Source: Gemmatimonadota bacterium (GTDB lineage: Bacteria; Gemmatimonadota; Gemmatimonadetes; Gemmatimonadales; GWC2-71-9). From it: a stretch of 64,000 bases of DNA. Positions 28,591 to 45,673 of the stretch are shown here, piece after piece. The notes below the pieces were generated by a model. It was not told where the DNA came from. It made no database searches and was given only the letters and a program-made list of their open reading frames with translations. The stretch spans positions 7,551 to 71,550 of the forward strand of contig JBDHHP010000001.1 in assembly GCA_039589275.1 (NCBI GenBank). The letters are read 5' to 3'. The position numbers were made by a program, and so were the translations under genes. Positions within the stretch are counted from its first letter, which is position 1, and each line of letters starts with the position of its first letter.

Positions 28591-28649
28591 CGTGACCCTA
28601 CCGACAGTGATAGCTGCGGGATCCTGCGTCGCGAGAGCGAGAGCCAGTG

Positions 28650-29516
28650 CTACTGCGAGCGTGGTGGCTCCCGTCCCTGTGCGACGAGTTCTAGCGTTTC
28701 CTTACAGCGCTTGCCCCACGGGTTGAACTTGTTGGCCTTGTAGCCGTCAGACCAAGTAGCGCTCGCTCCTTTGCGGTCTCCGGCAAACCATCGCGCCCTT
28801 CCGAGCTCGTAATACGCCTCTATGAGATTGGGGCCAAGCCGCAGCGTTTTCTCGAAGAAAGTCTGGGCATCTTCGAACATCTCGCGCTCTTGGTAAACTA
28901 GACCTAGGTAGAAATGCGCGTAGAGCGTGGCCTTCTTGTCATTGTCAAGCCGGATTGCCTTGGAGAGATGTTCAATAGCCTCGCCAAAAATCCCTTTCTT
29001 GAGGCAGATGTATCCAACGTTGATGCGCGCTAGTGAATTTGCCGGTTCCTTCATTAGAACTTGCTGGAAGGTCGCGAGGGCATCGTCGTAGTCTTCGTTC
29101 AGCATTTGCGCCCAGCCGAGCAGCGATTCCGCTTGCACGTCGCCGGGGGACAGCGAAAGCGCCTTCTTCAATGCTTGAAATGCACCAGGGTAGTCACCCA
29201 GGGAGATGAGACTCCAACCCTTCTCGATGAAGGTCGAGGCACCTATGTGGTCCACCCGAACCGCCGGTACCGCTCCAGTGAACTCGGGAGCACGCTCGCC
29301 GCTTTCGTTCTGGGACAGTTCCTTGTACTTCTCGACCAGGATCCGGATGTCCTCCTTCAGCATCGTGAGGTCGGTGATCCCCTGATCTACCGTCTTGAAC
29401 AGCGTGATGATGTCACGCTTGACAGCTTCACGCTGGTCCGCCCCCGACACGGACGCGATCCGCCCGGTTATCTCGTCATACGATGCCCGTAAGGGCGAGA
29501 CGATAGGCTCACTCAT
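28650..29516 (-). CDS. coiled-coil plus TPR-repeat protein (last gene of the che/mgl operon)
   Basis: 288 aa; the C-terminal two thirds are canonical TPRs (e.g. AFQALKKALSLSPGDVQAESLLGWAQM). 8-nt overlap with cheW. Confidence 0.8.
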   Translation of the reverse strand: MSEPIVSPLRASYDEITGRIASVSGADQREAVKRDIITLFKTVDQGITDLTMLKEDIRILVEKYKELSQNESGERAPEFTGAVPAVRVDHIGASTFIEKGWSLISLGDYPGAFQALKKALSLSPGDVQAESLLGWAQMLNEDYDDALATFQQVLMKEPANSLARINVGYICLKKGIFGEAIEHLSKAIRLDNDKKATLYAHFYLGLVYQEREMFEDAQTFFEKTLRLGPNLIEAYYELGRARWFAGDRKGASATWSDGYKANKFNPWGKRCKETLELVAQGREPPRSQ

Positions 29517-29985
29517 TTCGTATCTCCGCCATCAAACTTCGCAGCGCGACTCGTTGATCCGTAGCTAGCAGCTTCGCCACCGCCAACAGAATCACTGTGC
29601 GTTCTCCCAACGTGAGAATACCACTGATGCAATCTGCGGCAAGGCCCTTAACGATCGCAGGTGGCGCGGCCACGCTTTCCGCCGACGCCTTGAGAACCTC
29701 CAGCACGGCGTCCACCACCAGCCCGATTTTGCCATCGTCCCACTGCACTATCGCAATCCGTGTCCCTTCGTCGATTGACCCAGGCAGCTCCAACCGCTCT
29801 CGGAGATCCACCACCGGAATTACTTCATCTCCGTGCTTCAGCATGCCGACGAGGTAGTCCGGAGCCTTTGGCAGTGGGTTCGGCTCTTCGTACCTGAGTA
29901 TCCGCTCTACCTCGAACACATTGAAGGCGAACTCATGGCCGCCGAGACGAAACGTGACGAGCTGGACCTCATCGGCGATGTTCAT
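29509..29985 (-). CDS. cheW: chemotaxis coupling protein CheW
   Basis: 158 aa; QLVTFRLGGHEFAFNVFEVERIL..VGMLKHGDEVIPVVDLRERL is typical of a CheW domain. Confidence 0.9.
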   Translation of the reverse strand: MNIADEVQLVTFRLGGHEFAFNVFEVERILRYEEPNPLPKAPDYLVGMLKHGDEVIPVVDLRERLELPGSIDEGTRIAIVQWDDGKIGLVVDAVLEVLKASAESVAAPPAIVKGLAADCISGILTLGERTVILLAVAKLLATDQRVALRSLMAEIRNE

Positions 29986-30409
29986 TACCTAGCTCCGCTC
30001 CTCCTGCAACCAGTCTCTCAGCCAACACCTCCAAATCGACAATCGGAATCAGCTCGCCTTCGTGCTGTACCACACCGGAAGCCCATGGAAGTTGCCAGGT
30101 TTCCGGAACCGGGCGCGGGTCCTCCCGCACCAACTCTTCAGCATCGTCGACCACGAAAGCAACCATAGCACCGGAACACCGCGCGAGTACAACCATGCCG
30201 TGACTGGTATCTGACGCAGCATCGTCCTCAATGAGAGCAGCTAACTGTACCAACGGCACAACACGCTGCTTGATCGGCGTCACTCCCATTACAGCAGGAT
30301 GTGAACCGGGAGCGTCCAGTCTCTCGAATTCCTCTACGACCTCGACTACTTGGTCGACTCTCAGGCCTAGCCACCTGTCGCCCAATCGCACCCTGAGGTA
30401 CTCTGTCAA
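29969..30409 (-). CDS. divergent CheW-like coupling protein
   Basis: YLRVRLGDRWLGLRVDQVVEV..GVVQHEGELIPIVDLEVL. The track ORF (to 30691) overlaps cheB, so I place the start at TTG 30409, 2 nt after the cheB stop. Confidence 0.75.
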   Translation of the reverse strand: MTEYLRVRLGDRWLGLRVDQVVEVVEEFERLDAPGSHPAVMGVTPIKQRVVPLVQLAALIEDDAASDTSHGMVVLARCSGAMVAFVVDDAEELVREDPRPVPETWQLPWASGVVQHEGELIPIVDLEVLAERLVAGGAELGNEHRR

Positions 30410-30411
30410 GT

Positions 30412-31485
30412 TCAGCTCACTCCGTGGAGTGCTCGTTGTATCGCACTCGCTACCTGCTGCAGCGGTACGATTTCGGTCGCCCCGCCGAGCTCGGCTGCTG
30501 CCTTGGGCATGCCAAACACCACTGACGTTCCCCTGTCCTGGGCTATCCCTGTTCCCCCAGCATCTCGAATCGCACGCAATCCCGCGGCTCCATCCCGACC
30601 CATTCCCGTGAGAACTACCCCGACGGACCTCGAAGCGAACCTCGTCGCAACGGACCTGAATAGCGGGTCTGCCGCCGGTCTCACACCCCACAATGGCGCT
30701 TCCCGGTTCAGGTGGATTCGCAGGGCACCCTCGGTGGCAACAAGCATGTGATAGTCTCCCGGTGCCACCAGAGCCGTGTCCGATTCGATTCTCATGCCGT
30801 CTTCGGCCTCGTCTACTGTCAAAGCGCTCAGCTCATCCAGTCGTTGCGCGAGGCTGCGTGTGAACCCGCCAGGCATGTGCTGCACGATAAGCGCAGCATA
30901 GCCGACGCCCACCGGAAGCTGCGGCACGATTTCCACTAGAGCACGGGGACCACCGGTACTCGCGGCGATCACGAGCACTCGCGTCACGTCCGCGGTCACG
31001 GCTGACCGTCGTAGCGCCGTTCTCGGCGGCTCCAAAGCTGGACGAATCGGTCGGGTCCGGTCCAACACTACTGAGTCCGCCGCATCCAGCGCACGAAGGA
31101 CCGCCACTACCATTAGCGCCAGCCCCTCGGGTTCTCCGCCGGTCGGCTTGGCCACAACTTCCACTGCGCCCAGCTCTAGAGCACGGACTGCGGCGTCGGC
31201 TCCGGGACGCCCATAGGCACTCACGACCACGATGGGCCTAGCGCACTCCCGCATTATTCTCGCGATGGCCCGGAGCCCGTCCAGCCTAGGCATCTCGATG
31301 TCCATGGTCACTAGGTCCGGATTCAATCCCCGGATCTTCTCGATGGCGTCCAGGCCGTCGCACGCCGACCCTGCGAGCCGAAACCGCCCGGACTGTGACA
31401 CAGCGTCACCCAGCACACGCCGCATGAACGCACTGTCATCAACCACCAGAACGGTGGGTTGTCGCTCAGAGTTCGATCGGCTCAC
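30412..31485 (-). CDS. cheB: protein-glutamate methylesterase/glutaminase CheB (REC plus methylesterase)
   Basis: VLVVDDSAFMR..VTMDIEMP receiver, and a catalytic Ser/His/Asp context (ASTGGP, VQHMPGGFT, GMGRDGA). Confidence 0.95.
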   Translation of the reverse strand: MSRSNSERQPTVLVVDDSAFMRRVLGDAVSQSGRFRLAGSACDGLDAIEKIRGLNPDLVTMDIEMPRLDGLRAIARIMRECARPIVVVSAYGRPGADAAVRALELGAVEVVAKPTGGEPEGLALMVVAVLRALDAADSVVLDRTRPIRPALEPPRTALRRSAVTADVTRVLVIAASTGGPRALVEIVPQLPVGVGYAALIVQHMPGGFTRSLAQRLDELSALTVDEAEDGMRIESDTALVAPGDYHMLVATEGALRIHLNREAPLWGVRPAADPLFRSVATRFASRSVGVVLTGMGRDGAAGLRAIRDAGGTGIAQDRGTSVVFGMPKAAAELGGATEIVPLQQVASAIQRALHGVS

Positions 31486-31960
31486 TACCCACCGTGCGTA
31501 CAGTCACAACACCACGCTCCCCGTCCAGCCAAACCGAGCGGCTCTTCTCACCTCCGACGGCCTCTCCTACTATGGGTACCGATACGCCGCGCAAACTCGA
31601 CCTGCAAGCGACAACGTTCCGCTCTCCAATGTGAACCGCTCCGGCCGCGAGCAGGTCCGCGAACATACTGGCACCGCCAACCAAGCGACATGTGATCCGC
31701 TCCTGCGCTGCGCCCTTCTCGCACATTGCACCCACCAGCCACGGGACGGCAGTGTCGGCGGACCTAATGGGATTGCTCGTGTCCCTGGATAGAGACCGCG
31801 ATGGCAACAAAACGTGCGCCAAGCCGCACACTCTCGCCTCACGATCGTCCAGGATTACCGCCACACAGCTTCCGAGGCCGAGAGCTGTGAGGGTCTCACC
31901 GCTGTCGGTCACGGCCATGGCACCGAGCCTGACCAGGATCTCCTCGCCACCAGCGTTCAC
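31466..31960 (-). CDS. cheD: chemoreceptor glutamine deamidase CheD
   Basis: 164 aa; ALGLGSCVAVIL (catalytic Cys), GLAHVLLP. Confidence 0.9.
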   Translation of the reverse strand: MNAGGEEILVRLGAMAVTDSGETLTALGLGSCVAVILDDREARVCGLAHVLLPSRSLSRDTSNPIRSADTAVPWLVGAMCEKGAAQERITCRLVGGASMFADLLAAGAVHIGERNVVACRSSLRGVSVPIVGEAVGGEKSRSVWLDGERGVVTVRTVGSEPIEL

Positions 31961-32778
31961 GGTCGACGGTATATGCGTTCTCTCGGGTTCTCGAGGATGA
32001 GGCGCGTCCTCAGTACGCCTAGCAGAGTCTCGCTTTTTCCCAATACCAAGTATCCGTCGCGACGCAGGGCGGCGATGAAACCGGAGATAAGCCGATCTTG
32101 AGTCACTCGGTCAAAGTATATCAATACGTTGCGACAGATGATCAGGTCGTACGGCGGTGCGGGCGGCGGATCCTTAATCACGTCGTGTTTGCCAAACACA
32201 ACCAGATCGCGCACGCCCTGGTCGATGGTGCGGGGGCTCGCTCGACTGAAGTAGCGCTCAACTAGGTCCGCGGGCATCTCTTCGAACGCCGACTCGTTGT
32301 ACACACCTCGCTGAGCTCGATCCAGGCAAGCTCCGTCGAGATCAGTCGCATCGATTCGCACGGCCTCAGGGCGGGTTCCGGATTGCCGTGCCAACTCCGA
32401 GATTAGTATCGCCAACGTGTAAGGCTCTTCGCCGGACGCGCAGCCAGCCGACCAGCATCTCAACTCGCGGGGCCCCTCGCCCCACAGCGCTGACAAAGCT
32501 GTGTTCTTAAGAGCATCCCACGTTTCCCGATTGCGAAAGAACTTAGTGACGTTGATGGTCAGTGCATCGAGCAACTTATCGTATTCGGCTCTGTCCCGTT
32601 CCAACACGTCCGCGTAGGCCTCGTACGTGTTCACTTCGCACGCACGCATACGCACGGCGAGGCGACGTCTCAGGCAACTCTCTTTGTAAGCATCGAATCC
32701 AAAGCGACGTTCCCGGGCAATTTTCTCGACCAACTGGACGAGGTTGGGATCGCGCTCGGCCGGATTACGTGAGGGCAC
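31957..32778 (-). CDS. cheR: chemotaxis protein methyltransferase CheR
   Basis: TNVTKFFRN and the SAM-binding WSAGCASGEEPYTLA, RNVLIYF. Confidence 0.95.
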   Translation of the reverse strand: MPSRNPAERDPNLVQLVEKIARERRFGFDAYKESCLRRRLAVRMRACEVNTYEAYADVLERDRAEYDKLLDALTINVTKFFRNRETWDALKNTALSALWGEGPRELRCWSAGCASGEEPYTLAILISELARQSGTRPEAVRIDATDLDGACLDRAQRGVYNESAFEEMPADLVERYFSRASPRTIDQGVRDLVVFGKHDVIKDPPPAPPYDLIICRNVLIYFDRVTQDRLISGFIAALRRDGYLVLGKSETLLGVLRTRLILENPRERIYRRP

Positions 32779-34384
32779 TCACGGTATCCAGATTCGTTCG
32801 AGCCAGCTCGTGCTTCGGGTTGAGTTCCAGCGCTTTGCTCCAATACTCGGCAGCCAGTTCTCGGTCGAGTCGCTTATACGCGATGTTCCCCAGCTTGAAA
32901 TAGACGTCGTCGCCTAGCTCCGGCTGCAACTTGCACGCTCGATGATACGAGTCCCAGGCCTCATCATACCGACCTGCTCGATAGTGGATATCTCCGAGGT
33001 TCTTTGACAGTTGCGGTACGGACGGCTCGTCTGCGATGGCCACTTTGAGAACCTCCTCTGCCTCCTCTACACGACCCAGCAGCTCCAGCAAGGCGCCGAG
33101 GTTATTCCGCAGCACTGCGTGCTCTGGGTAGCGCTCCAAGCCTTCTCTCAACACCGCCTCCGCCTGGTCGTAATCCTCCTGGCATCCCGCTGTCAGTGAA
33201 CGCGCCCAGTACCAGATCTCACTCAGTAGCTGCTCGCCCGCTACCTCCCGCGCGCGGTCGAGCCGTCCAGCAGCGACCTCGAAGTCCCCCCGTCGTAGAG
33301 CCACGACGCCCCATCCAGTGAGGATGTGTCGGTCCCTACGCGCCCTGGTTGCTGCCTCGGCGTAGTGTGCCTCGGCATCCTCGAGCAGACCCGCTTTCTC
33401 GCAACTCAGTGCCAGGTTGTACAGCACTGACGGCCGCGATCCGCCGCGCTCGACGGCTACCTTGAAAGCGTCCATTGCCTGCTGCCATTGGGCCTGCCGA
33501 AAATGGATCAACCCGAGGTAAAACGAGGCACCGCCATCCGACGGTCGCAGCTCGACGACGCGCCTGAACTCCCGCATCGACTCGTCAAGCATGCCGGTGC
33601 GGTAGAACGCTATCCCGAGATTACGGTGCTCGTCGACTCGGACATCCGGAACCTCCGGCTCCCGCTCCGTCTCCTTGCGACCCGAGGCGTGCACGAACCC
33701 CGCAGTAATGAGGCCGTAGAGCGCCTTGCCCACGTCGAACTCAACCATCCCGGTCTCCTCGACGATCATGGCAACCTCACGGGTTCCGTCCAGAAAAGGT
33801 ACAAGACGTTGCTGCTCTTCCGACAGCGTCACACTCGATGATTCCAGATGGTCCTCGTCCAACTCGAAGACGATGTCGAGTGAGGGGATCTTCTTTTCGA
33901 TCTGGCTCCACTCGTCAACTCGACGGGCGCCTTCGAGCAGCAGAGCCTCCGGATCAATGGAAACCAGAAAATCCTGACGGTGGGGCCGTACATCACTCTC
34001 AAACGTGAAGCTCCCCCGTCTCCAGGTGAAGAGGAAGTACACGGCCTCCTCGATCTGGACACGCATGTAGTGCTCCAGTTCGGACTGCGATATAGCACCT
34101 GTGTCCACCAGGATCTCGCCGAACTTCTTGTCCCGGTCGTGGTCCTGCAAACGGATGGCCTCGTCGAGCTGGCCTTGGTTTATTCTGCCACTCTTGAACA
34201 GGATGTCGCCCAGGCGGTCCCGGCGGTTCACCACTGTTGCGTAGATGATCCTCCCGGCATCGAAGAAGATGTAGCCCAGGCTGGACCGGTCGGTAATCGA
34301 AAGGCAGCCTGTCTTACGTCCCAGCGACAGCAGTTGGAGGACGTCTGGCAGTGAAGCTTCCTTGAGACTACCCTTTATCGCCAC
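32765..34384 (-). CDS. PATAN (DUF4388, PatA-N-terminal-like) domain plus TPR-repeat protein
   Basis: N-terminus MAIKGSLKEASLPDVLQLLSLGRKTGCLSITD..GYIFFDAGRIIYA with a helical insert; the C-terminal ~280 aa are TPRs. Paralogue of 38534-39691. Confidence 0.8.
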   Translation of the reverse strand: MAIKGSLKEASLPDVLQLLSLGRKTGCLSITDRSSLGYIFFDAGRIIYATVVNRRDRLGDILFKSGRINQGQLDEAIRLQDHDRDKKFGEILVDTGAISQSELEHYMRVQIEEAVYFLFTWRRGSFTFESDVRPHRQDFLVSIDPEALLLEGARRVDEWSQIEKKIPSLDIVFELDEDHLESSSVTLSEEQQRLVPFLDGTREVAMIVEETGMVEFDVGKALYGLITAGFVHASGRKETEREPEVPDVRVDEHRNLGIAFYRTGMLDESMREFRRVVELRPSDGGASFYLGLIHFRQAQWQQAMDAFKVAVERGGSRPSVLYNLALSCEKAGLLEDAEAHYAEAATRARRDRHILTGWGVVALRRGDFEVAAGRLDRAREVAGEQLLSEIWYWARSLTAGCQEDYDQAEAVLREGLERYPEHAVLRNNLGALLELLGRVEEAEEVLKVAIADEPSVPQLSKNLGDIHYRAGRYDEAWDSYHRACKLQPELGDDVYFKLGNIAYKRLDRELAAEYWSKALELNPKHELARTNLDTVSALT

Positions 34385-36339
34385 TAGGTCAGCTCCTCGA
34401 CAAGCCTCTCGGCAGGATCTGGCCAGTTCCAGATCATCTTCTCTCGGCTCTGGAGAGCGCCCGCAGGACTCACCACAACACCACTGGTTCTGAGCCCCGC
34501 CGAACTCCGTCGAGCTCTGGGTAGCGCTCCCTCGATCAGTTCTCGCGCAAGGCCCGCGCTCGGCGGAGCAGCTCGAGCGTCCGCCGCATCGAGTACGCGT
34601 TGCACCAAGCCCGTCACAGCTCGAACCGAGTCGGCGGGACGATCAGCCAAGTAGTCCACGAGCTCGGGATCAGCCTCCGCCGCAACGCCACCCATCATCC
34701 GCTGCACCATAGACGATCTGAATTCCCGATCCGGTGAAAGCAACACGAAGCTATCCGCCCCTCGGATGCGAGACATCAGCTGTTCCGATAGGCCTGCTAG
34801 TTCGTCAGGCGGAGCATTGGAGGTGAGCACTAGCGGCTTGCCCTCCCCCAGTAGCGTGTCGACCAGGCCAGCGAGTTCTTGTTGCGCGGACTCGGTCCCC
34901 GCCAACAGCTGCACGTCATCGATCAACAGGGCCTTGCTGCTTTGGAACAGCGATCGCAGTTCGGAGACCCGGTCGTCTCGCTCTGCCTCCGCTGTCATGT
35001 CGCGGAATTCCCGTGCAGACACGCAAGTCACACCGGAGCCAAGCGCAGAGGTCAGCGCGTTCCCAGTTGCGTGAAGCAGATGTGTCTTGCCGACACCCGT
35101 CCGCCCGATCACGATGATCACGTTGCGGGAACCCTGATCCTCCAGCCCTCGCATCGCCTCGTCAGTCCGCCTGTTCACTGCGCTGCCGATATAGTTATTG
35201 AATGTCCAAGCGGGAGATGGACCAGGCAACGACTCTGTCTGCGGAGCCAGCGTGTCAGCAAGTACCTGCGCTTCGGAAACGCGGTCCGGGTCCCTAAACA
35301 GTGGATCGTCGGCACGGACGGGATCGACTTCACTGACCGATTTCCTCAAGGTCACGAGCCGCTCGGCGTCCCGCTCGAATTCCTCCAGGGCTGCCTCCAC
35401 CGGAATCGGTGTACCTTGATCCAACAAACCCTCCAACCTGGCAGTATCAATTCCTTTTCTTCCCCAGCGCCGTATGGCTTCGGTGAGTTCGGCTTCCCAT
35501 GCAGTTACTTGCTGCTGGACCGTGACGCTCACCTCGGAAAGGAAATCAGCAAACTCATCCTCGCTAGCTTGATGCCGGGCCGTGATTAACGACGGCCTCG
35601 GGCTGGCATCAATCGCTAGCGCCTCGCCTTCCAACAAAGACCTGGCCCCCTCCGGTGTGAGAGGACTTTCGCTCACCGCATCCAGAGCTATCAGCCGGTT
35701 GAGTAGCGACACCAGCTCTCGAGTATTCGTGATGTCGAATTCCGCGACCACCGAAAGGACTGACTCATCCAGGCCGGTCGCTCGCGCGCTAGCCCTGCCC
35801 TGCAGCACACCGAGACGCGTTTCGTAGTCGGGAGCGCCCATCTCGACCACAAGCCCGGCGTCGATGAGTGACGCCAGGGACGAATCGAAGTTGTCGATGT
35901 CTCGGGGAGCACAACGACCTGCGAGCAGGAGGTGCCGGCCGCTCGACTGAGCCTGTTGTATGAGCTTGGCGAGTTCAGTCTGGACGTCGCGCCGCCGGTC
36001 CAACAGATGCGCATCGTCGATCAACAATACGTCCGCCTCCGCCAGCCTGTGTCTGAAAGCGTCGGCCTGCCCAGCGGAAGCGGCAGCGCTGAAGGCTTCT
36101 GCCATCCGATCAGGAGTCACGTACTCGATCGAGCGCGGCGGATCTGACTGCGACGCTTTCAGACCAACTGCCATGAGCAGATGGGTCTTGCCAACGCCCT
36201 CGCCTCCATAGAGATACAAGGGGTTATACATGCCACTAGGGCGGGCAGCAACCGCCCCCGCTGCAGTAGCCGCCAGCTCGTTGCCACTCCCCACAACGAA
36301 CGTGTCGAAACTGAACTTGGGGTTCAGTTCTCCTGTCAC
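34384..36339 (-). CDS. tandem DnaA-domain-III-like AAA+ ATPase (two modules, no DnaA domains I/II/IV)
   Basis: Module 1: [73 protein letters not shown]. Module 2: [64 protein letters not shown]. 4-nt overlap with the mglA stop and 1-nt overlap with the next start. Confidence 0.8.
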
Positions 36340-36935: not shown

Positions 36936-36938
36936 GAT

Positions 36939-37753: not shown

Positions 37754-38577
37754 AACTCTTGCTCTGCGAGCCAGTCCTTGGCGGTATCGGCGGCGCGCTG
37801 CGCCATGACCGCCAGCCTGCCGGCGGGCACGCTGCGATCTCTTGCCACCAACATCAGACCGTCCTTAGACGGACGACTCACATGGACGTTCCCGCTCGCA
37901 CCCTCCGCGGCCACCCACTCCCAAGAGCCCATTCCCAGTATGCGCGTGGTGCGCGCCGCCTCGTGAACGGCGCCCGTCACGAAGGCCGCCACGTCGTCCG
38001 AGACGTCTGCACCGGTCGCATCTCGAATACCTCCCGCTAGCACCAACCCTCTGGCGTCGAACATGAGTAGGCCGTGGTCGGCCCCCGCTAGACCCGCAAA
38101 CACCCTTGACTGGCGGACCTCTGCCTCGACTTCCGAGGTCTCGACTGCTTCCCTGACCACGTGTAACGCCTCGACCACGCTGGAATCAGTGGGGTCCGCC
38201 GCCAACGCCGTCTCGAGGTGCTCCAACGCTCCATCCAGGTCACCCCAACGGAAGCTCAGGAAGCCTAGGCCCTTATGAGCTCCCAGGTGTCGTGCGTCTT
38301 TCTCGATAGCCGCATACCATTCGTCACGAGCTTGCTGCAGGTGGCCCATGTCGACGAGCACGCGTGCGTACAGGTCATTTGCGTCGGCGAGGTCGGTATG
38401 ACGTTCCAAGCCCGCGACGGCTACTTTTGCGGCCAGGTACAACTGCCCCCTGGATCGCAGTGACTCCCCCAAATCGAGAAAGACCAAGCTGTCCGGATCA
38501 CGGGCGAGTTCGGCACTCAACGTGCGGACTTCGTCAACCAACGGGGCCTCCGAGCATACCGTCCAGCTTGCCCACAA
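37750..38577 (-). CDS. TPR plus C-terminal roadblock/LC7-like domain protein
   Basis: N-terminal TPRs (LVFLDLGESLRSRGQLYLAAKVAVAGLERH..) and a C-terminal HGLLMFDARGLVLAGG..GNVHVSRPSKDGLMLVARDRSVPAGRLA. TTG start at 38577 (alternative TTG at 38541). Confidence 0.7.
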   Translation of the reverse strand: MWASWTVCSEAPLVDEVRTLSAELARDPDSLVFLDLGESLRSRGQLYLAAKVAVAGLERHTDLADANDLYARVLVDMGHLQQARDEWYAAIEKDARHLGAHKGLGFLSFRWGDLDGALEHLETALAADPTDSSVVEALHVVREAVETSEVEAEVRQSRVFAGLAGADHGLLMFDARGLVLAGGIRDATGADVSDDVAAFVTGAVHEAARTTRILGMGSWEWVAAEGASGNVHVSRPSKDGLMLVARDRSVPAGRLAVMAQRAADTAKDWLAEQEL

Positions 38578-39691
38578 TCGTGAGCGCCTGATTCACTTGC
38601 TCCACCTCTTCTGGATCCTGTTCGGCGTGTTCACCATGCTTGATCCATCGCTGCCACCACTCGACCGCCTCATGGTAGCGCCCTTGGAGTGCGAGCGCGT
38701 TACCCAACAGCCGGTGCGCCGGAACTAGCATGGGATCGATGCGCAGTGCTCGACGCAGGTGCTGCTCGGCAGAATTCACGCGCTTCTCCATCAGGTCCGC
38801 ACGCCCAAGCATGAGGTGCACGTCCGGGTCATGCGGCGCCGCCGCGCGGGCCGTTTCAGCGCACACCCTCGCCGACCCAGGATCTCCACCCTCTAGGGCC
38901 TCCTGCGCCTGACCGAGGGCCATCTCGACCTGCTCCCGGCCCTCGTCAACAACTGGCGCCGCGACCGGCTGCTCCTCGAGCTGCAAGATGCCGGCACTTT
39001 CCAGACCAAACACTGCCTTGGCAACGTCGAACTCAGATCGACCGAGATCAGCCGAGATGCCCCGCACGTCGCGCTCGTGGTCGACGGCTGCCATTATCTC
39101 CCATTCGAGCGGGAGCAGGTCGAGGTAATCCTCCTGGGTCACCTGGTTCTGTGAGGCGAACCGCGGGATCACACCGAGGTGCGGAATCTTGCTCTCAATG
39201 CGCGACCACTCATCGATACGGCGCGCTCCTTCCATCAGCAGCGATTCCGTAGGTATGCGCACTCGGGCCTCGTTGGGCAGTTCGGTGGACTCCCCTTCAA
39301 CGAAGGAGAAATACCCTTCGCGCCAACCTACGAGCTCGAAAACGACCTCCTCCACCTGGCCCCTGACTTGTCGTTCGAGATCCCGCTGCGAAAGCGCGCC
39401 GATGTCCACCAGGATGGCGCCGAGCTTGCGCTCGTCACCTGCAAGCTGCATGTCGCGAGCGCGATTCAGGTCGGCCTCGCTAGTTCTGCCGGATTGCACC
39501 AACATCTGGCCCAGTAGGTGAGGGTTGCTTTCGATCTCCGCGTTTACGACCGCTCCTCGTTCAAAGTACACGTTTCCACTATTCTGCCGCAGCTTCGAGG
39601 TTACCGTGAGCTTGCCAGTCTTTCGACTGAGGTCGAGCAACTGGAATACGTCGTGAATTCCGAGTTCTTTGAGGGGACCCTCAATCGCCAT
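38534..39691 (-). CDS. PATAN (DUF4388) domain plus TPR-repeat protein
   Basis: MAIEGPLKELGIHDVFQLLDLSRKTGKLTVTS..GNVYFERGAVVNA with C-terminal TPRs. ATG at 39691 lies 2 nt after the upstream stop; the longer track ORF is rejected. Confidence 0.8.
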   Translation of the reverse strand: MAIEGPLKELGIHDVFQLLDLSRKTGKLTVTSKLRQNSGNVYFERGAVVNAEIESNPHLLGQMLVQSGRTSEADLNRARDMQLAGDERKLGAILVDIGALSQRDLERQVRGQVEEVVFELVGWREGYFSFVEGESTELPNEARVRIPTESLLMEGARRIDEWSRIESKIPHLGVIPRFASQNQVTQEDYLDLLPLEWEIMAAVDHERDVRGISADLGRSEFDVAKAVFGLESAGILQLEEQPVAAPVVDEGREQVEMALGQAQEALEGGDPGSARVCAETARAAAPHDPDVHLMLGRADLMEKRVNSAEQHLRRALRIDPMLVPAHRLLGNALALQGRYHEAVEWWQRWIKHGEHAEQDPEEVEQVNQALTIVGKLDGMLGGPVG

Positions 39692-39693
39692 GG

Positions 39694-42363
39694 CTACGCA
39701 ACCTTGGACCGAAAGATGTGCTTGAGATCGAGGGCCGAGCGGGCGTGCTTCCGCGCCTCGCGAGCAAGAGAACCGTCGGGCTCGAGGCCCATTACTAGCT
39801 CCCACTCCCTCAAGGCCTCAGTGTAACGGCGCAGTCTGGCGGCCGCGATGCCTCGGTAGAAATGCGCGCCCACGTGCCCGTCGTCAAAGGTCAGCACACG
39901 TTCAAACGCCTCAATCGCTTGCTCAGCCTTTCCACCGTCCAACAGCGACCGCCCCAAGGCAAGCAGGGCTTCCGTGTCGGACGGATCGGTCTTCAGTGCC
40001 TCAACCAGTAGATTGACCGCCATTCGCGGCAGCTTGCTTAGTCGATAGACCCGAGCCAGCGCGAGCGACGCCTCCGTCAGAGTTGGCAGTATCTCTAACG
40101 CCGCCCGATAAGACCTTTCCGCTGCTTTGAGATCGTTCCGCGCCTCGTACAGGCGTCCCAAGTCGACTTGGACCTGGGCGAAGCGCGGCTCGAGATCCAG
40201 AGCACCCTCGTAAGCCTGCTGGGCAGCATCGACATCCCCCATATCCGCGGCTATGTCACCCACAAGCTTCAGGATGTCCGCGCGCTGCGGAGCCCTGCTG
40301 CGCGCTCGATCCAAGTACTCCAGGGCGCTGGCCGGATCACCGGCCGCGAGCCGGGCTTCCGCCAATGATACGAGCACGTCGGCGTTGTCCGGGTTTTCCT
40401 CTGCCAATGAGGTCGCGTCATCAACCGCTTCGGCGCCCCGGCCCAGCGCAAGAAGCTGTCGGACCTCACCCAGCCGTGCGTCGAGGCGTTGCGGCGAATG
40501 AGAGCGCGCCGCCCGGTATCGCTCGAGCGCTTCGCCGTGGAGCCCTCGACGGTCATAGATATCACCTGACAATACGTTCATTTCGACCGGATCAGCGCCC
40601 CGTCCCACAGCCCTATCGGACTCAGCCGCCGCTAGGTCTAGCAGGCCTTTGTCGAGATAATCCCGCGCCAGCGCGAGTGGATCGGTGGGGCCAGAGGGTG
40701 GCTCACGCAACGGCGCTTTGTCTAACTCAGCAAACATGTCGTCGATGAGCGACTGATCGAACTCAATTGGATGTACCGCATCGGCTGCGACATCGGCTGA
40801 AATCTCCGGCACTACGGCGATGCCTGGATCCTCAGATTGCAGATCGATGGAGAGCCGGAACTTCTGCGGCACGTAGTAGGGATCAAGGGACTGCGCCCGT
40901 GTGACCGTTCGTAGAGCTCCGTCAAAGTCGCCCAGTCTCGATAGCGCGAAGCTGAGGTTGTAGTGGTTTTCGGCGGAGTCCGGGTCGGTCTCTACCGCTC
41001 TCGCAAAGGCGTTGCGGGCGTCCTTGGGACGTCCCAATTCGTTGAGTACGAGACCGATGCCGTTCCAAGCACCAGCGACGGGATTCCGCTCCAGTACCTT
41101 ACGGTAGGTCTCAAGCGCGAGCTGGAACCGGCGCAGTTTGAACAGAAGCAGGCCGAGATTCAGTTGGGGTGTCGTCGATGCCGGGTCCCGGCTGACAGCT
41201 CTCTTGAACTCAGATACCGCTTGCTCGTGTTGACCGCCCTGCGCCAAAACGACCGCCAGATTGCTGTGCGGCAGCGCATATCCGTCGTCGTTCTCGATCG
41301 CCTTCAAGTACGACTCTTTGGCATCTTCAAACCGGCCGAGCTGATGCAGCACCACGCCCCGTTCATTCCAGAACTTGGACGATTCGGGCACGTCGCGAAC
41401 CAACCCTTCATACAAGTCCAATGCTGCTGCGTGGTCTCGCTGCAGCAGGAAGACTTCCGCCATCCCCTGCTCTACCATGCGACGGTCTTCGCCCCGGTCT
41501 AACGCGAGCCGGTACTCCCGCAATGCCTCTTTGTAGTAGCCCTGTCGTCGAAATGCCAAGCCCAGGCTATGGTAAGCGAGCGCCTCCCGCCCAGCGTCTG
41601 AGCCTTCCGAGTTGGGCGCCTCCCACATGGCGCTCCTTCGATCGCCCGTCACCCGTTCGAGCGAGAGGTTCGTCTGCGCACGGCCATAGGTCGGGTTCAG
41701 CTGAATTGCGCGTTTGGTGGCAGCCCTCGCGTCTTCGTGGCGTCCGACATCACCGAACACGAAGGCGAGCAGGTAGTGCGCTTCAGCGTTGTCGGGATTC
41801 AGCTGAACTGCGCGTTCCAATGCATCCAGCGCTTCGGAGTTGAGACCCTGATTGTACAGTACTTCCCCAAGATAGAAGTGCACGACACTACTGTCCGGCT
41901 CCAACCCACAGGCTCTTTCGAGCCATTCGGTTGCCGTCTCGAGGTGACCGAGCTTCTTCTCCGCCAGCGCAATCTGTACGATCGCCGCGACGTTGTCCGG
42001 ATCCCTGGTGAGAAACGCCTGGAACTCGCTAGCTGCGGCGTCGTATTGTGCCAGCGCACTGTAGGCGCGGCCGAGCTCCCAACGCTTCTCGCTGCTCTCA
42101 GGATCAGATCGGAGCGCTGCGCGCAGCTCTTGCACTCTTCGATCGTAGTGCCCCGATCGTCGATAGGCGAATTCGAGATTTCGCTCCGCCACGGTCATCC
42201 GAGGGTCTAGCGCCAGCGCGTGGGAGAACTGCTCAACTGCTTCGGCAGTGAGGCCTTTTTGGCAGTACAAAACACCCAGGTTGTTGTGAGCGCCCGCATC
42301 AGAGGGGTCGATGCGTCGAGCCAGGCTCCGCAGCGTATCGCGATCCTGCTCCGTCAGGGCCAC
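39694..42363 (-). CDS. large TPR-repeat protein (889 aa, two TPR arrays separated by a ~60-aa acidic linker)
   Basis: More than 20 recognisable TPR units (e.g. AEAHYLLAFVFGDVGRHEDARAATKRAIQLNP). No other domain is recognisable. Confidence 0.85.
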   Translation of the reverse strand: MALTEQDRDTLRSLARRIDPSDAGAHNNLGVLYCQKGLTAEAVEQFSHALALDPRMTVAERNLEFAYRRSGHYDRRVQELRAALRSDPESSEKRWELGRAYSALAQYDAAASEFQAFLTRDPDNVAAIVQIALAEKKLGHLETATEWLERACGLEPDSSVVHFYLGEVLYNQGLNSEALDALERAVQLNPDNAEAHYLLAFVFGDVGRHEDARAATKRAIQLNPTYGRAQTNLSLERVTGDRRSAMWEAPNSEGSDAGREALAYHSLGLAFRRQGYYKEALREYRLALDRGEDRRMVEQGMAEVFLLQRDHAAALDLYEGLVRDVPESSKFWNERGVVLHQLGRFEDAKESYLKAIENDDGYALPHSNLAVVLAQGGQHEQAVSEFKRAVSRDPASTTPQLNLGLLLFKLRRFQLALETYRKVLERNPVAGAWNGIGLVLNELGRPKDARNAFARAVETDPDSAENHYNLSFALSRLGDFDGALRTVTRAQSLDPYYVPQKFRLSIDLQSEDPGIAVVPEISADVAADAVHPIEFDQSLIDDMFAELDKAPLREPPSGPTDPLALARDYLDKGLLDLAAAESDRAVGRGADPVEMNVLSGDIYDRRGLHGEALERYRAARSHSPQRLDARLGEVRQLLALGRGAEAVDDATSLAEENPDNADVLVSLAEARLAAGDPASALEYLDRARSRAPQRADILKLVGDIAADMGDVDAAQQAYEGALDLEPRFAQVQVDLGRLYEARNDLKAAERSYRAALEILPTLTEASLALARVYRLSKLPRMAVNLLVEALKTDPSDTEALLALGRSLLDGGKAEQAIEAFERVLTFDDGHVGAHFYRGIAAARLRRYTEALREWELVMGLEPDGSLAREARKHARSALDLKHIFRSKVA

Positions 42364-42367
42364 GAGG

Positions 42368-42988
42368 TCACCCCACCTGGATGACTCGGAGAATCGCTTT
42401 GAGCGACGCCAGATCAGGCAACAGCAGGAAGTGACCCTTCAGCTTCCGATCTGCTTCCTCGAAGTGGAAGTCTGTCTCGACGCAGAAGACGTAGTCGCGA
42501 TCGCGCCCAAAACTCAGGTGCGCAGTGGTCACAACGGCCGTGGCAACGTCGATAGCGAGACTGGGCACCGACGGCAGGAGCATCATCCCCATGAAATCCG
42601 ACAGAGCGTTCATGTATGCCCCACCCAGAATGTTGCCAGCCTCTTTGAGGCTCGAGCGCTCCAATTCACCGAACTCCACAGTCGCACCCGGCTCGCGTTT
42701 GAGCAGCAGGTCGCACAAGAGGCGTGCGTTGTCATCGGGAAACATCAAGAGAGTGCGACCCGTGAGGTCGCCCAGCATGTGCATCAAAACGGCCGCGACC
42801 ACCTCGTCGGAGACCAGCAGCAACTCGGATAGACCATCAATGTCTGTGACCGTTATCTCCGGAACGCTGATCATGATGCGCCTGTCGGTCAGCTGTGACA
42901 GCGCGGTAGCCGCGTGTCCAGCACCGATGTTCGCCACTTCTTTGAGAGCATCCATCTGCAGCGCTTCGAGACCGTTCATATCTTCCAT
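42368..42988 (-). CDS. cheC: CheC-family CheY-P phosphatase
   Basis: 206 aa; MDALKEVANIGAGHAATALSQL and a second SLKEAGNILGGAYMNALS repeat. Confidence 0.88.
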   Translation of the reverse strand: MEDMNGLEALQMDALKEVANIGAGHAATALSQLTDRRIMISVPEITVTDIDGLSELLLVSDEVVAAVLMHMLGDLTGRTLLMFPDDNARLLCDLLLKREPGATVEFGELERSSLKEAGNILGGAYMNALSDFMGMMLLPSVPSLAIDVATAVVTTAHLSFGRDRDYVFCVETDFHFEEADRKLKGHFLLLPDLASLKAILRVIQVG

Positions 42989-43001
42989 AGAACTCTCCTA
43001 C

Positions 43002-44864
43002 CTACACCAGCCCACCGGCATCTAGTATCAACGCTGGCGTACCGTCGCCTAGGATCGTGGCGCCGCTGAAGATCGGCAGCGCGCCCGTGGGTGAATCAAA
43101 ACTCTTGACCACAATCTCTTGCTGTCCAGTGAGCGCGTCGACTACCAAACCCGACCGCCGCTCTCCGATCTGGACAACCACAACCGGCTTCCGGGCCGGA
43201 CCCTGACCCGGAATTCCCATGATCTCTCGCAGATCGACTAATGGGATCATGTCGCCCCGAAACAGCATTGCGTCCTCTCCTTGTAGACGCGTCACGGCCG
43301 CCGGCTCCAAATCTACGGTTTCCGCAACATGCGTGACGGGAAGAAGATAGTGCTCGGCTCCGACCTGAGTTGTGAGCGCCCGTACAATCGCCAACGTGGT
43401 AGGAAGCCTGAGTGTGAACGTGGTGCCCTCCCCTGACACGCTCCGCACCGTGAGGCCGCCGCCGAGCGACCGCAGCCGAGTGGCTACCACGTCGATTCCC
43501 ACTCCCCTACCCGAGACGTCAGAGACCTCTACCGCTGTGCTGAACCCAGGCCGGGCCAGGAGCCGCAGCAGGACCTCGTCGTTCAGTGCGTCAACCTCAC
43601 TGCCCACCAAACCGCGTTCCTTGGCAGCCTGGAGGACCCTGGTTCGGTCGATCCCCCTCCCATCGTCGCTCACGTGAATTGCTACTGTCGCCTTCTCCCT
43701 GATCGCCGAAAGCACGATGCGGCCGGCCTTGGGTTTACCCGCAGCTTCGCGGTCACCTGGCGGCTCGATACCGTGGTCCACAGCGTTGCGGAGCATGTGC
43801 ACGAGTGGATCGCCGATTTCGTCCAGAATCGACCGATCGAGCTCGATTTCTTTGCCCTCTACCCAGAAGTCAATGGTCTTGCCAAGCTGCCGCGCGGCAT
43901 CTCTCACTAGGCGCGGAAAGCGATCAAACACCTGCCACACCGGAGTCATTCGAGCTTCGATGATCTCCGACTGTAGCTGAGATGTGAGATAGGAGACCTT
44001 GAGACTCACGTCCTCAAGTTCCGGGTCGCCTCTCTTCGCGGAGACCGACGCCAGCCGGTCCTTTACCGTCACTAGCTCACCCACGAGGTTCATCATGGTA
44101 TCGACCCGGCGCAGATCGACTCGAATGTGCTTGGTCCGCCCGTCGAGGAGCTCGGCGACACCTGTGGCGTCCTCAGCGCCACCGACCACCACTTGCTCCA
44201 CGTCCCCGGCAGCCTCGATCTCGGCCTCGATCTCGGTATTGTCTACTTTCGCATCGAGCCTGAACTCGAACTTGCCGTCGAAGTCTTCCGACTCGATGGT
44301 CGCGGATGGGGGGCGTACGGCACTCACTTCCCCTAGTCGGCGGGCCCGACTCAGCACGACCATCACACGCGCGCCCTTGAGCGTGGCGTCACGATCGATG
44401 ACCACGCGGACTAGTGTGCCTGCACCTCTTGCTTGTTCTGGCTCTGATGGCGCGACACGGCGGGCCCGAGGCTGAGCGGGCGTCAGCGCGCGAACGGTTC
44501 GGTCGAGCGCGCCCAGTACTTCGGAGGAATCCAGTTCGCCTTTGCGGCCCGCGACCGATGCCTCCACTACCTGGTCCAGTTGGTCGGCGGCCTGAAACAG
44601 TAGCTCAAACAGCTCGTCCGAAGGTGGCTGTTTGCCGCTGCGCAGGATGTCTAGGAGGTCTTCCATGCTGTGGGCCAGGTCAGTCACGGCCTGATAGCCC
44701 ATGGTTGCGGCCATTCCCTTGATGGTATGTACGGCACGGAACACACCACTCACGGGTTCGCTAGCAGTTGGTTCGCGCTCCCACTCTAGGAGCTGCTGGT
44801 TGATTGCGCCTAGGTGTTCCCGACTTTCCGCTAGGAATAGCTCAGCATACTGTGAGGGGTCCAT
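43002..44864 (-). CDS. cheA: chemotaxis histidine kinase CheA (Hpt, P2-like, dimerisation, HATPase and CheW-like domains)
   Basis: FRAVHTIKGMAATMGY (Hpt His), HMLRNAVDHGIE, DDGRGID, GRGVGIDVV and a C-terminal CheW-like domain. ATG at 44864 lies just after the cheY stop. Confidence 0.95.
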   Translation of the reverse strand: MDPSQYAELFLAESREHLGAINQQLLEWEREPTASEPVSGVFRAVHTIKGMAATMGYQAVTDLAHSMEDLLDILRSGKQPPSDELFELLFQAADQLDQVVEASVAGRKGELDSSEVLGALDRTVRALTPAQPRARRVAPSEPEQARGAGTLVRVVIDRDATLKGARVMVVLSRARRLGEVSAVRPPSATIESEDFDGKFEFRLDAKVDNTEIEAEIEAAGDVEQVVVGGAEDATGVAELLDGRTKHIRVDLRRVDTMMNLVGELVTVKDRLASVSAKRGDPELEDVSLKVSYLTSQLQSEIIEARMTPVWQVFDRFPRLVRDAARQLGKTIDFWVEGKEIELDRSILDEIGDPLVHMLRNAVDHGIEPPGDREAAGKPKAGRIVLSAIREKATVAIHVSDDGRGIDRTRVLQAAKERGLVGSEVDALNDEVLLRLLARPGFSTAVEVSDVSGRGVGIDVVATRLRSLGGGLTVRSVSGEGTTFTLRLPTTLAIVRALTTQVGAEHYLLPVTHVAETVDLEPAAVTRLQGEDAMLFRGDMIPLVDLREIMGIPGQGPARKPVVVVQIGERRSGLVVDALTGQQEIVVKSFDSPTGALPIFSGATILGDGTPALILDAGGLV

Positions 44865-44866
44865 CC

Positions 44867-45229
44867 CTACCCAAGCACCCGCTGCACTGCCTCCAAGACA
44901 CGGGAGGGCTGAAAGGGTTTCACAACGAAGTCCTTTGCCCCTGCCTGAATGGCCTCGACCACCAGGGCTTGCTGGCCCATTGCACTGCACATCAGAATGC
45001 GCGCGTCCGGATCCTGACCAATGATCTCGCGCACAGCGTCTATACCACCCATATCCGGCATGACTATGTCCATAGTGACGAGGTCTGGCCTGAGCTGTCT
45101 GAACTTCTCTACAGCCTGGACCCCCGTCTCAGCCTCGCCGACCACCTCGTATCCGGCCTGACTGAGGATATCGCTTATCATAGTCCGCATGAAGATGGCG
45201 TCATCGCAGACAAGCACTGTATGGCTCAC
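44867..45229 (-). CDS. cheY: chemotaxis response regulator CheY
   Basis: 120 aa; VLVCDDAIFMR, VTMDIVMPDMGG, FVVKPF. Confidence 0.95.
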   Translation of the reverse strand: MSHTVLVCDDAIFMRTMISDILSQAGYEVVGEAETGVQAVEKFRQLRPDLVTMDIVMPDMGGIDAVREIIGQDPDARILMCSAMGQQALVVEAIQAGAKDFVVKPFQPSRVLEAVQRVLG

Positions 45230-45238
45230 GCACCCTCC

Positions 45239-45673
45239 CTAAGCAGCCATTATCGGGCTGAGTAAAGTGTCCACATCGAGAAGCACAAAAGACAATCCGG
45301 CATGGCGGCCAACTGCCAAGACGAGCCGCGGATCCAACCCCGGAAGGTCAGCCCGTTCGGTGAGACCTTCCCGCGCGACCGTCACCAGATCGAGCACGGC
45401 ATCCACGGCGAAACCGACGGATTTGTTGCAGACATCGAACACAACAATCGGGCTGTCCTCGCTGCCCGGTGGGAATCCGAGGGTGGTCCGCCCGTCAACC
45501 ACGGTAATCAGACTGCCCCGCGCATTGATGAGGCCTCTCACTGAGGCCGCCGCTCCCGGTATCCGGGTAGCAGGCTGCGCGGACAGAATCTCCCGAACCA
45601 GGGTCGCCTCAGCCGCGAATACGCGATCGGCTACTCGGAAAGCCAGGACCCGTACAGTCGCGAAGTCGGCCAT
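45239..45673 (-). CDS. cheW: chemotaxis coupling protein CheW (first gene of the che block)
   Basis: VLAFRVADRVFAAEATLVREIL..RGLINARGSLITVVDGR. ATG at 45673 lies 1 nt after the rluD stop. Confidence 0.88.
   Translation of the reverse strand: MADFATVRVLAFRVADRVFAAEATLVREILSAQPATRIPGAAASVRGLINARGSLITVVDGRTTLGFPPGSEDSPIVVFDVCNKSVGFAVDAVLDLVTVAREGLTERADLPGLDPRLVLAVGRHAGLSFVLLDVDTLLSPIMAA

Follow-up and report, generated by a model that had tools for sequence, protein, structure and literature searches.

An 18-gene operon conserved in Gemmatimonadota interleaves a complete chemosensory pathway with a cell-polarity module carrying MglA and a tandem DnaA-like ATPase

The DNA analyzed in this work is a 64,000-nucleotide stretch of the genome of a Gemmatimonadota bacterium (GenBank assembly GCA_039589275.1, contig JBDHHP010000001.1, positions 7,551 to 71,550 of the forward strand), referred to below as the window and numbered from its first letter. 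Open reading frame (ORF) listing and translation identified 18 consecutive genes that form an unbroken chain on the minus strand from position ~45691 to 28650, and this operon, in which a complete Che pathway is interleaved with a cell-polarity module, is anciently fixed in Gemmatimonadota. Start codons were adjusted to the gene calls of two relatives. The genes, together with the inserts found within the two PATAN domains, are listed in order along the minus strand, with sizes in amino acids (aa) and the scores on which each assignment rests.

45239-45691, minus strand: cheW1, CheW adaptor, 150 aa from TTG 45691 (Pfam CheW 86 bits; start set by orthologue length)
44867-45229, minus strand: cheY, single-domain response regulator, 120 aa (Response_reg 106 bits)
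43002-44864, minus strand: cheA, histidine kinase, 620 aa (Pfam Hpt-P2-dimerization-HATPase-CheW; NCBIfam CheA 457 bits; start refined)
42368-42988, minus strand: cheC, CheY-P phosphatase family, 206 aa (Pfam CheC 75 bits; E-value (E) 4e-29 to Thermotoga maritima CheC 1xkr)
39694-42363, minus strand: TPR889, large tetratricopeptide repeat (TPR) scaffold, 889 aa (TPR families 200-266 bits)
38534-39691, minus strand: PATAN1-TPR, 385 aa (DUF4388 109.5 bits; start refined)
39371-39514, minus strand: MshEN-like helical insert of PATAN1, residues ~60-107 (NCBIfam NF053729 26 bits, cut-off 38)
37750-38520, minus strand: TPR-roadblock fusion, 256 aa (TPR matches; Robl_LC7 18.8 bits)
37406-37753, minus strand: stand-alone roadblock protein, 115 aa (Robl_LC7 45 bits)
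36939-37409, minus strand: mglB, roadblock fold, MglB (GTPase-activating protein, GAP) family, 156 aa (Robl_LC7 29 bits)
36336-36935, minus strand: mglA, Group-1 Ras-like GTPase, 199 aa (PDB matches to MglA)
34384-36339, minus strand: AAA2x, tandem DnaA-domain-III AAA+ ATPase, 651 aa (Bac_DnaA 224 bits in two stretches)
32765-34384, minus strand: PATAN2-TPR, 539 aa (DUF4388 126.6 bits; 1-nt overlap with the stop codon of the ATPase gene)
34055-34216, minus strand: MshEN-type insert of PATAN2, residues 57-110, predicted to bind cyclic di-GMP (c-di-GMP) (NF053729 43.1 bits)
31957-32778, minus strand: cheR, receptor methyltransferase (CheR 170 bits, plus CheR_N)
31466-31960, minus strand: cheD, receptor deamidase and CheC partner (CheD 83 bits)
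30412-31485, minus strand: cheB, receiver domain plus methylesterase (CheB_methylest 209 bits, Response_reg 71 bits)
29969-30391, minus strand: cheW2, ~140 aa (CheW 67 bits at ORF residues 97-225; orthologue 142 aa)
29509-29985, minus strand: cheW3, 158 aa (CheW 108 bits)
28650-29516, minus strand: terminal TPR protein, 288 aa (TPR families; N-terminal ~90 aa without a TPR match)

With refined starts, neighboring genes are separated by gaps of 9, 2, 13, 4, 2, 13, 3 and ~20 nt or overlap by 4, 4, 4, 1, 14, 4, 20, 17 and 8 nt. All four of the 4-nt overlaps described in an earlier reading of the letters and ORFs alone (37750-37753, 37406-37409, 36336-36339 and 31957-31960; hereafter the original prediction) are present. 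The widest gap, of ~20 nt, lies between cheB and cheW2 and narrows to 2 nt with an alternative TTG at 30409. The start of cheW1, which overlaps the stop of the upstream rluD gene, is ambiguous (45673, 45691 or 45730), and the 240-aa ORF at cheW2 is an over-extension as judged by the orthologue length. Accordingly, the chain itself stood as originally drawn and the family labels of all 18 genes were borne out by Pfam, NCBIfam, structure and PDB searches, while the longest ORFs adopted as gene extents proved too long for CheA, PATAN1, the TPR-roadblock fusion and CheW2. TPR repeats were detected by Pfam in five proteins of the operon. Scanning of positions 27600-47500 for internal promoters and terminators returned counts at or below shuffle expectation and is uninformative on transcription units.

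Conservation of the locus was assessed by reading gene neighborhoods in 15 genomes besides that of the window, namely a complete chromosome, a Gemmatimonadaceae metagenome-assembled genome (MAG), 12 genomes from a scan of a genome collection and one further MAG; the 13 scan loci include the complete chromosome again and hence contribute 12 further genomes. The identical 18-gene order was recovered in all 15, as far as each contig extends, at ATPase identities of 34-49%, and 13 of the 15 contigs run on to rluD, the MA peptidase gene or both, with the same flank each time. The Gemmatimonadaceae MAG keeps this order with an ATPase ~36-37% identical to that of the window. Such sharing of gene order is far beyond chance. 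The arrangement is syntenic in Gemmatimonadales, Gemmatimonadaceae and other Gemmatimonadota rather than being unique to one genome, the central genes fall in the MglA, roadblock and PATAN families by Pfam, PDB and hhalign comparisons, and an already characterized orthologous locus was not found in the literature searched; on these three points the expectations of the original prediction were upheld.

The tandem ATPase is one apparently undescribed component of an operon whose other parts all belong to known families. Its chain begins at DnaA domain III and consists of two modules joined by a helical linker (residues ~262-364) and followed by a conserved C-terminal tail, RTSG...S.EK..W.WP..R..E, that is predicted to be disordered. 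PF00308 matched at 224 bits in two stretches, PDB searches returned DnaA domain III at E 6e-39, and an AlphaFold2 model (predicted local distance difference test score 82.5) contains two confident AAA+ modules linked by helices, of which the N-terminal module superposes on Bacillus subtilis DnaA domain III (8bv3) with a template modeling score of 0.93 and a root-mean-square deviation (rmsd) of 1.8 A. Neither half shows any variation in Walker A, Walker B or the sensor-II arginine. DnaA domains I and IV were searched for with Pfam, which gave no Bac_DnaA_C or domain-I match, and the PDB matches cover domain III only. The full-length DnaA model TIGR00362 scored 335.8 bits, below its cut-off of 343.9 despite the presence of two domains, and the protein is not Hda, being tandem in architecture and scoring 158 bits against TIGR03420 (cut-off 194.8). 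In a neighbor-joining tree all 67 real DnaA domains formed one clade without the ATPase domains. The box-VII arginines (residues ~150-160) are both lost in the N-terminal half of the window protein and its closest relatives, where SSLASLI replaces the consensus ERLxxRL, and one of them (SRI) is retained in the C-terminal half. Catalytic competence may not be the same in both halves.

Full-length relatives of this ATPase (~640-660 aa) number in the hundreds, and those with a name are all from Gemmatimonadota. The genome collection was scanned with an ATPase alignment and Walker-motif patterns; most of the candidates listed were real dnaA genes, and among them were at least 13 tandem ATPases, all of Gemmatimonadota.

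The gene directly after the ATPase, both in orthologous loci and in loci without any che or mgl genes, encodes PATAN2-TPR. Both PATAN proteins matched DUF4388/PATAN (PF14332) well above the cut-off of 25 bits (126.6 bits for PATAN2 and 109.5 for PATAN1), and because ~160 protein residues align to a profile of 122 positions, an insertion is visible in each. The helical insert of PATAN2, with the sequence RLGDILFKSGRINQGQLDEAIRLQ followed by 6 residues and KFGEILVDTGAISQSELEHYMRVQ, matched NF053729, an NCBIfam model of a 53-residue MshE-related c-di-GMP-binding domain, at 43.1 bits, above the curated cut-off of 38; the PATAN1 insert, at 26 bits, fell below it. In PDB searches the PATAN2 insert retrieved Thermus thermophilus PilF (6f8l, 1.7e-7) and Vibrio cholerae MshEN (5htl, 1.2e-5) with both motifs aligned, and the Pfam MshEN model PF05157 did not report either PATAN insert at E <=0.01. 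The strict MshEN motif, RLGxx(L/V/I)(L/V/I)xxG(L/V/I)(L/V/I)xxxxLxxxLxxQ, occurs twice with a 5-residue spacer (Wang et al. 2016; PMC5013675). Relative to it, position 11 of the first PATAN2 motif is Arg, the glycine varies among orthologues and the spacer has 6 residues; RLG and Q are kept in both motifs of the PATAN2 orthologues, including that of a locus from which che and mgl are missing (L085). In PATAN1 the first motif is degenerate and the second is kept in most orthologues. Both PATAN proteins with their MshEN-type inserts are, on these motif matches, probable c-di-GMP binders.

MglA matched Myxococcus xanthus MglA at E 1.4e-74 (residues 1-194) and T. thermophilus MglA at 5e-67. The P-loop GPGRSGKT, the intrinsic arginine in TDRTLFF and the TVPGQ motif, all claimed in the original prediction, were found. 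Group-1 MglA proteins are defined by an intrinsic arginine finger beside the G2 threonine and by TVPGQ rather than DxxGQ at G3 (PMC4316618), and judged by these motifs the protein is an unambiguous member of the group. The stop of mglB lies 3 nt upstream of mglA, making a coupled pair, and its product (Robl_LC7 29 bits against a cut-off of 23; E 3e-10 to M. xanthus MglB 6h5b and 2.5e-5 to T. thermophilus MglB) is predicted from its fold family to be the GAP-family partner of MglA. For the 115-aa roadblock protein the best PDB match was a Robl_LC7 structure (7f8m, 1.5e-4), with MglB at 4e-3. The roadblock part of the TPR-roadblock fusion scored 18.8 bits, under the Pfam cut-off of 23; it was matched by the NCBIfam MglB model (E 2.8e-4, residues 152-251) and by the 115-aa roadblock family in hhalign (probability 94.7%, E 6e-8), and its Gemmatimonadaceae orthologue has a clear Pfam roadblock match. 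TPR889 matched generic TPR models only (Pfam and NCBIfam, a comparison that included no SgmX sequence or model), and a colinear orthologue (27% identity, E 5e-94) lies directly upstream of a tandem ATPase gene in a locus without che or mgl (L084, described below).

By gene content, the chemosensory genes comprise a full F1-type (Thermotoga/Bacillus-like) set (CheA with P2, CheW, CheY, CheB, CheR, CheC and CheD), in which CheA is without a receiver domain by Pfam. CheY and CheC are nearest to T. maritima proteins; the match of CheY to T. maritima CheY (1tmy) spans residues 2-118 (E 6e-50), and the protein hardly varies, scoring 220-232 bits in all orthologous loci. In sequence, the che genes belong to the flagellar type of Thermotoga/Bacillus. 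Frz-type traits (the CheA-receiver fusion FrzE, the dual-receiver protein FrzZ or a methyl-accepting chemotaxis protein, MCP) were not detected in the operon by Pfam, and no MCP was present among the scanned ORFs of the window. That scan for receptor and motility genes took in ORFs of at least 200 aa apart from seven ORFs of the division and cell wall (dcw) cluster between 13434 and 22358; among the ORFs profiled there was likewise no pilus or flagellar gene, in line with the original prediction. The substrates of CheR, CheB and CheD are receptors, whose genes must therefore lie elsewhere.

More distant double-ATPase genes (28-33% identity) sit in reduced contexts. Two loci (L085 8045-11736 and L088 6892-10460) carry only the ATPase and PATAN-TPR genes in the same slot between ileS-rluD and the MA peptidase gene, a minimal pair that reflects either large-scale loss or an ancestral minimal state. 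Locus L086 carries the ATPase, PATAN-TPR and a homologue of the 288-aa TPR protein without che or mgl, and a Gemmatimonadota MAG (L084 3765-12701) has the TPR889 orthologue and a double ATPase, again without che or mgl, with two bactofilin genes a few genes upstream. The 200-aa gene that follows the ATPase in L084 was considered as a hidden MglA or PATAN protein and rejected, there being no similarity and no Pfam match. Locus L087 has cheW-cheY-cheA-cheW-cheC followed by TPR, PATAN and ATPase genes and is without mglA/B and roadblock genes. In another Gemmatimonadota MAG (L013 9208-11353), the terminal TPR gene comes immediately after cheR and cheD; cheB and the two cheW genes of the second che block are missing, and the rest is kept. 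The embedded module had been presented as a single unit between two blocks of che genes, with the terminal 288-aa TPR protein assigned to the second block. Neither view held: the ATPase occurs with PATAN-TPR and/or the large TPR protein without che, without mglA/B or without both, and the terminal TPR protein travels with the embedded module. From the reduced loci, what persists is a core of the double ATPase and either PATAN, the large TPR protein or both, and the MglA/B-roadblock set and the Che set are therefore add-ons kept by most of the phylum.

DnaA-like ATPase domains were also met in a second setting. In three genomes, here called Fermentibacteria-type on the strength of one named homologue (P0420), such domains are fused to MshEN in genes that lie between pilD and pilB (L089 2359-13973, L090 5797-15198 and L091 5800-17268), and pilT, pilC and pilS are also present in L089, where the contig extends. 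The fusion proteins are three of ~400-2000 aa with MshEN and one or two DnaA-like AAA+ modules, accompanied by one MshEN-only protein, and no description of such fusions in pilus clusters was found in the literature searched. Membership of the fusion ATPases in the same subfamily as the Gemmatimonadota ATPase was considered and found unsupported, since per-domain identity is 0.33 and 0.28 to the two halves of the latter against 0.40 to real DnaA; a whole-protein ranking that favored a shared subfamily was set aside because two domains per target inflate the scores. Real DnaA domains form a clade that excludes both the Fermentibacteria-type and the Gemmatimonadota domains.

The operon lies in a window of 58-63% G+C (2-kb windows) in which all credible large genes from position 1 to 64000 are on the minus strand, with a GC skew below zero all along, making one co-directional block. 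The nearest upstream genes are ileS, a DksA/TraR zinc-finger protein gene, lspA and rluD; also upstream, co-directional and nearly gapless, are tilS, ftsH, folP, cdaA, a TMEM260-like gene, yggS, a DivIVA-like ORF and a purine nucleoside phosphorylase gene. Downstream follow an MA-family peptidase gene, tRNA-Val, a gene for a ~600-aa TPR protein, tRNA-Asp and then the dcw cluster with rsmH and ftsI to ftsQ, ftsA and ftsZ, in which the ORFs between ftsI and ftsQ are taken to be mur genes from their position only. An Rfam search of the window returned the two tRNAs only, tRNA-Val(tac) at 27500-27574 and tRNA-Asp(gtc) at 25555-25628, both on the minus strand, which stand between the MA peptidase gene, the ~600-aa TPR gene and rsmH. 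The 648-aa ORF at 25680-27626 covers tRNA-Val, which puts the true start of the gene at a position below 27500 (its orthologues have 576-601 aa). The 163-aa ORF at 51614-52105, minus strand, has a DivIVA-like N-terminus, and orthologous loci have a Pfam DivIVA gene at this place; together with yggS, ileS, lspA, rluD and the downstream dcw cluster it resembles the extended division neighborhood of Firmicutes. Between ftsY and an M23 peptidase gene, a 612-aa ORF (7142-8980, minus strand) is without a Pfam or NCBIfam match. The 810-aa protein encoded at 52842-55274, minus strand, has a TMEM260-like O-mannosyltransferase domain and adjoins the diadenylate cyclase gene cdaA (55301-56206), which places a second cyclic-dinucleotide system ~10 kb away from the operon.

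Among known systems, the operon logic resembles Frz-MglA of Myxococcus. There, as here, a Che-type pathway accompanies a Group-1 MglA, an MglB-family protein, additional roadblock proteins and TPR proteins (with SgmX as the Myxococcus effector), and control of polarity in a polar motility machine is the role to be expected; in Myxococcus, Frz acts on the MglA/MglB/RomR/MglC polarity module. The extra roadblock proteins had been thought to be without a characterized counterpart; MglC, reported to be a roadblock paralogue that acts with MglB in Myxococcus (PMC4719450, PMC7949163), is such an analogue. The Myxococcus genes are unlinked (PMC4316618), whereas here they are interleaved in one operon, which lacks the FrzE-type CheA-receiver fusion, FrzZ, RomR/RomX and a receptor gene; the Che set is instead of Thermotoga/Bacillus type with CheC and CheD, and the Myxococcus polarity module has no tandem DnaA-like ATPase. 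In neither Myxococcus nor Bdellovibrio does mglA lie near its signaling partners, and some Group 1 and 5 genes neighbor PATAN genes (PMC4316618). Linkage of MglA to PATAN in Gemmatimonas aurantiaca is already tabulated, without che genes or the ATPase, in Table S2 of Wuichet and Sogaard-Andersen (2014), where GAU_1115 appears as 'MglB>MglA>' and GAU_1409 as 'PATAN>MglA>-PATAN>' (PMC4316618). Descriptions of the che-embedded operon, of the double DnaA-like ATPase or of an MshEN insert in PATAN were not found in the literature searched.

The cyanobacterial Tax/Pix systems with PatA-type (PATAN-receiver) proteins also link a chemosensory pathway to PATAN genes, and PATAN output binds PilB1 and PilC there. 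In the present operon TPR repeats take the place of the receiver as fusion partner of PATAN, which is thus not directly phosphorylatable by CheA; the cyanobacterial systems, for their part, have no MglA/B, roadblock proteins or ATPase. The two tandem ~24-residue RLGxx...Q motifs of the PATAN2 insert resemble those of MshEN in MshE, PilB and PilF (PMC5013675), with the difference that the motif pair lies inside a PATAN domain here and at the N-terminus of a secretion ATPase there. Likewise, both halves of the ATPase share Walker A/B and the sensor-II arginine with domain III of DnaA and Hda, from which the protein differs in having two modules per chain, a linker and a conserved tail, in being without domains I and IV, and in standing among signaling genes rather than at a replication origin. 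The Fermentibacteria-type pilus operons share with it a non-replicative DnaA-domain-III ATPase, single or tandem, associated with MshEN modules; in them, MshEN is part of the ATPase chain itself, and the operons lack che, mgl and PATAN genes.

The reading favored here, with a probability put a little short of even, is that the operon delivers a chemosensory and a c-di-GMP input to an MglA polarity switch acting on a type IV pilus motor. Several findings from other organisms point this way. PATAN domains bind PilB1 and PilC in Synechocystis (bioRxiv 10.1101/2021.06.11.447907), MshEN is the c-di-GMP sensor of PilB/MshE-type motors (PMC5013675), and Frz reaches MglA via response regulators (PMC3441718). 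In Myxococcus, MglA-GTP is reported to mark the leading pole and to stimulate type IV pili together with the TPR protein SgmX (PMC7519303, PMC7668184). The Fermentibacteria-type genomes, where genes for DnaA-like domains fused to MshEN stand between pilD and pilB, add another lead to pili. A further lead comes from distribution: pilus genes of Gemmatimonadota occur in all environments except marine, and flagellar genes have a patchy distribution and are rare in genomes from soil (PMC10581226); seven of the loci that bear the cluster are from isolates named SMAG_, read as soil MAGs, a comparison that is drawn between different genome sets. In the proposed mechanism, receptor arrays would control CheA and, on the model of FrzX~P in Myxococcus, CheY~P would target the MglB/roadblock complex and so shift where and when MglA is GTP-bound. 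MglA-GTP on the TPR scaffold would then act via the PATAN adaptors on PilB/PilC at one pole, c-di-GMP bound by the PATAN insert would be a second input, and the ATPase, with PATAN2 and the large TPR protein, would be an ATP-driven assembly or release element. Gene content, order, conservation and the identity of domains and motifs are observed, and it is from these that we infer the interactions and the pilus output. The hard-wired chemosensory-to-GTPase switch of the original prediction is accordingly retained as genetic linkage, the functional wiring from CheY~P to MglA being suggested by co-linearity only; the output, which had been called unknown, is no longer fully open given the several independent leads to type IV pili, although a flagellar output is still a live rival.

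Positioning ATPases inside che operons are an established theme, represented by ParC in Vibrio and PpfA in Rhodobacter, and this counts for the principal rival explanation, namely that the locus is a flagellar chemotaxis operon, its Che proteins governing the single polar flagellum in the ordinary manner, with its own pole-organizing module (MglA/B, roadblock, TPR and PATAN proteins and the ATPase) that places or licenses the flagellum and/or the chemoreceptor array at the right pole, in functional analogy with ParC/ParP, PpfA or FlhF/FlhG. ParC/ParP and PpfA do resemble the present case as nucleotide-dependent positioning or polarity modules within a che operon; they use ParA/MinD-type ATPases, however, and Pfam searches found no ParA/MinD- or FlhF/FlhG-type gene in this operon, in which the DnaA-like protein is the only ATPase besides CheA. 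The close likeness of CheY to T. maritima CheY and its near-invariance across loci, the Thermotoga-like CheC and the presence of CheD all suit a flagellar output and weigh against a pilus. So does the biology of cultured Gemmatimonas, since G. phototrophica and G. groenlandica each carry a single polar flagellum and CheA increases along with fli genes (PMC9862903). Other points also tell against the pilus reading: no pilus gene was seen among the scanned ORFs of the window or in any Gemmatimonadota locus examined, the central module is without a receiver domain by Pfam to accept the CheA signal, the separability of the modules means that co-linearity need not mean one pathway, the soil argument compares different genome sets, and the Fermentibacteria-type link appears, from the domain comparisons, to be a parallel or recurring association rather than a sign of common descent. 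Set against the flagellar explanation are the known partners of PATAN, MshEN and MglA, which all point to pili, and the contrast between patchy flagellar genes, rare in soil, and a cluster found in every spanning Gemmatimonadota locus examined, the seven SMAG_ loci included, in the genome sets compared. On balance the flagellar explanation is considered unlikely, while carrying real weight.

Two further explanations give the Che and MglA/B genes a smaller part. The double ATPase, PATAN-TPR and large TPR protein could form a cell-cycle or pole-identity device that marks or matures a pole, perhaps tied to replication, division or budding, with MglA/B and Che as later readers. This would suit the very DnaA-like N-terminal half of the ATPase (Walker A/B, sensor-II NxRELxxxLNR and the rmsd of 1.8 A to B. 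subtilis DnaA domain III), the ATPase-PATAN pair standing alone in the rluD/peptidase slot of two lineages without che or mgl, the TPR-ATPase pair near two bactofilin genes in L084, and the position of the locus within a conserved yggS-divIVA-ileS-lspA-rluD ... rsmH-ftsI-mur-ftsA-ftsZ neighborhood. That housekeeping neighborhood may, however, be simple vertical inheritance; two tRNA genes and two other genes intervene between the operon and the dcw cluster, the ATPase is without DNA-binding domain IV and without domain I, and nothing ties it to DnaA or, with no dedicated search for a clamp-binding motif made, to the clamp. A pole-identity device is considered distinctly improbable. Finally, the locus could be a frozen juxtaposition in which two or three functionally independent units (Che; MglA/B-roadblock; ATPase-PATAN-TPR) share a transcript but exchange no signal. 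The units do stand apart in some lineages, cheB and two cheW genes were lost from L013 with the rest kept, and the module is without a receiver domain. Nevertheless, the che / module / che / TPR order with its overlapping stop and start codons is kept at 34-49% ATPase identity in all loci long enough to show it, an interleaving over deep divergence that is hard to explain without selection for co-expression, and the separate lineage of L087 independently keeps che beside TPR-PATAN-ATPase; a mere juxtaposition is the least probable of the explanations weighed and is given very little credence.

A broader proposal, which is possible although rather unlikely as it stands, is that the tandem DnaA-derived ATPase with a PATAN-TPR protein bearing MshEN would constitute an unrecognized regulator of polar machines, most probably of the motor of type IV pili, that in Gemmatimonadota is wired together with a polarity GTPase and chemotaxis. 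If this were true, the fold of a replication-initiator ATPase would have been re-used as a signaling or assembly switch, and chemical gradients, c-di-GMP and GTPase polarity would converge on one device. Only for Myxococcus is it understood how Che pathways connect to MglA; the genes lie scattered there, and the link was established by genetics. In Gemmatimonadota the whole candidate circuit (kinase, response regulator, GAP-family and roadblock proteins, GTPase, scaffolds and second-messenger sensor) is encoded in one conserved operon, which provides a compact, testable parts list for the Che-to-GTPase connection in a different and environmentally abundant phylum. The operon further draws attention to a double ATPase, DnaA-like but non-replicative, as a component in the control of polarity or pili in bacteria. 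G. aurantiaca T-27, with its catalogued MglA loci GAU_1115 and GAU_1409, and other cultured Gemmatimonas species offer an experimental entry point.

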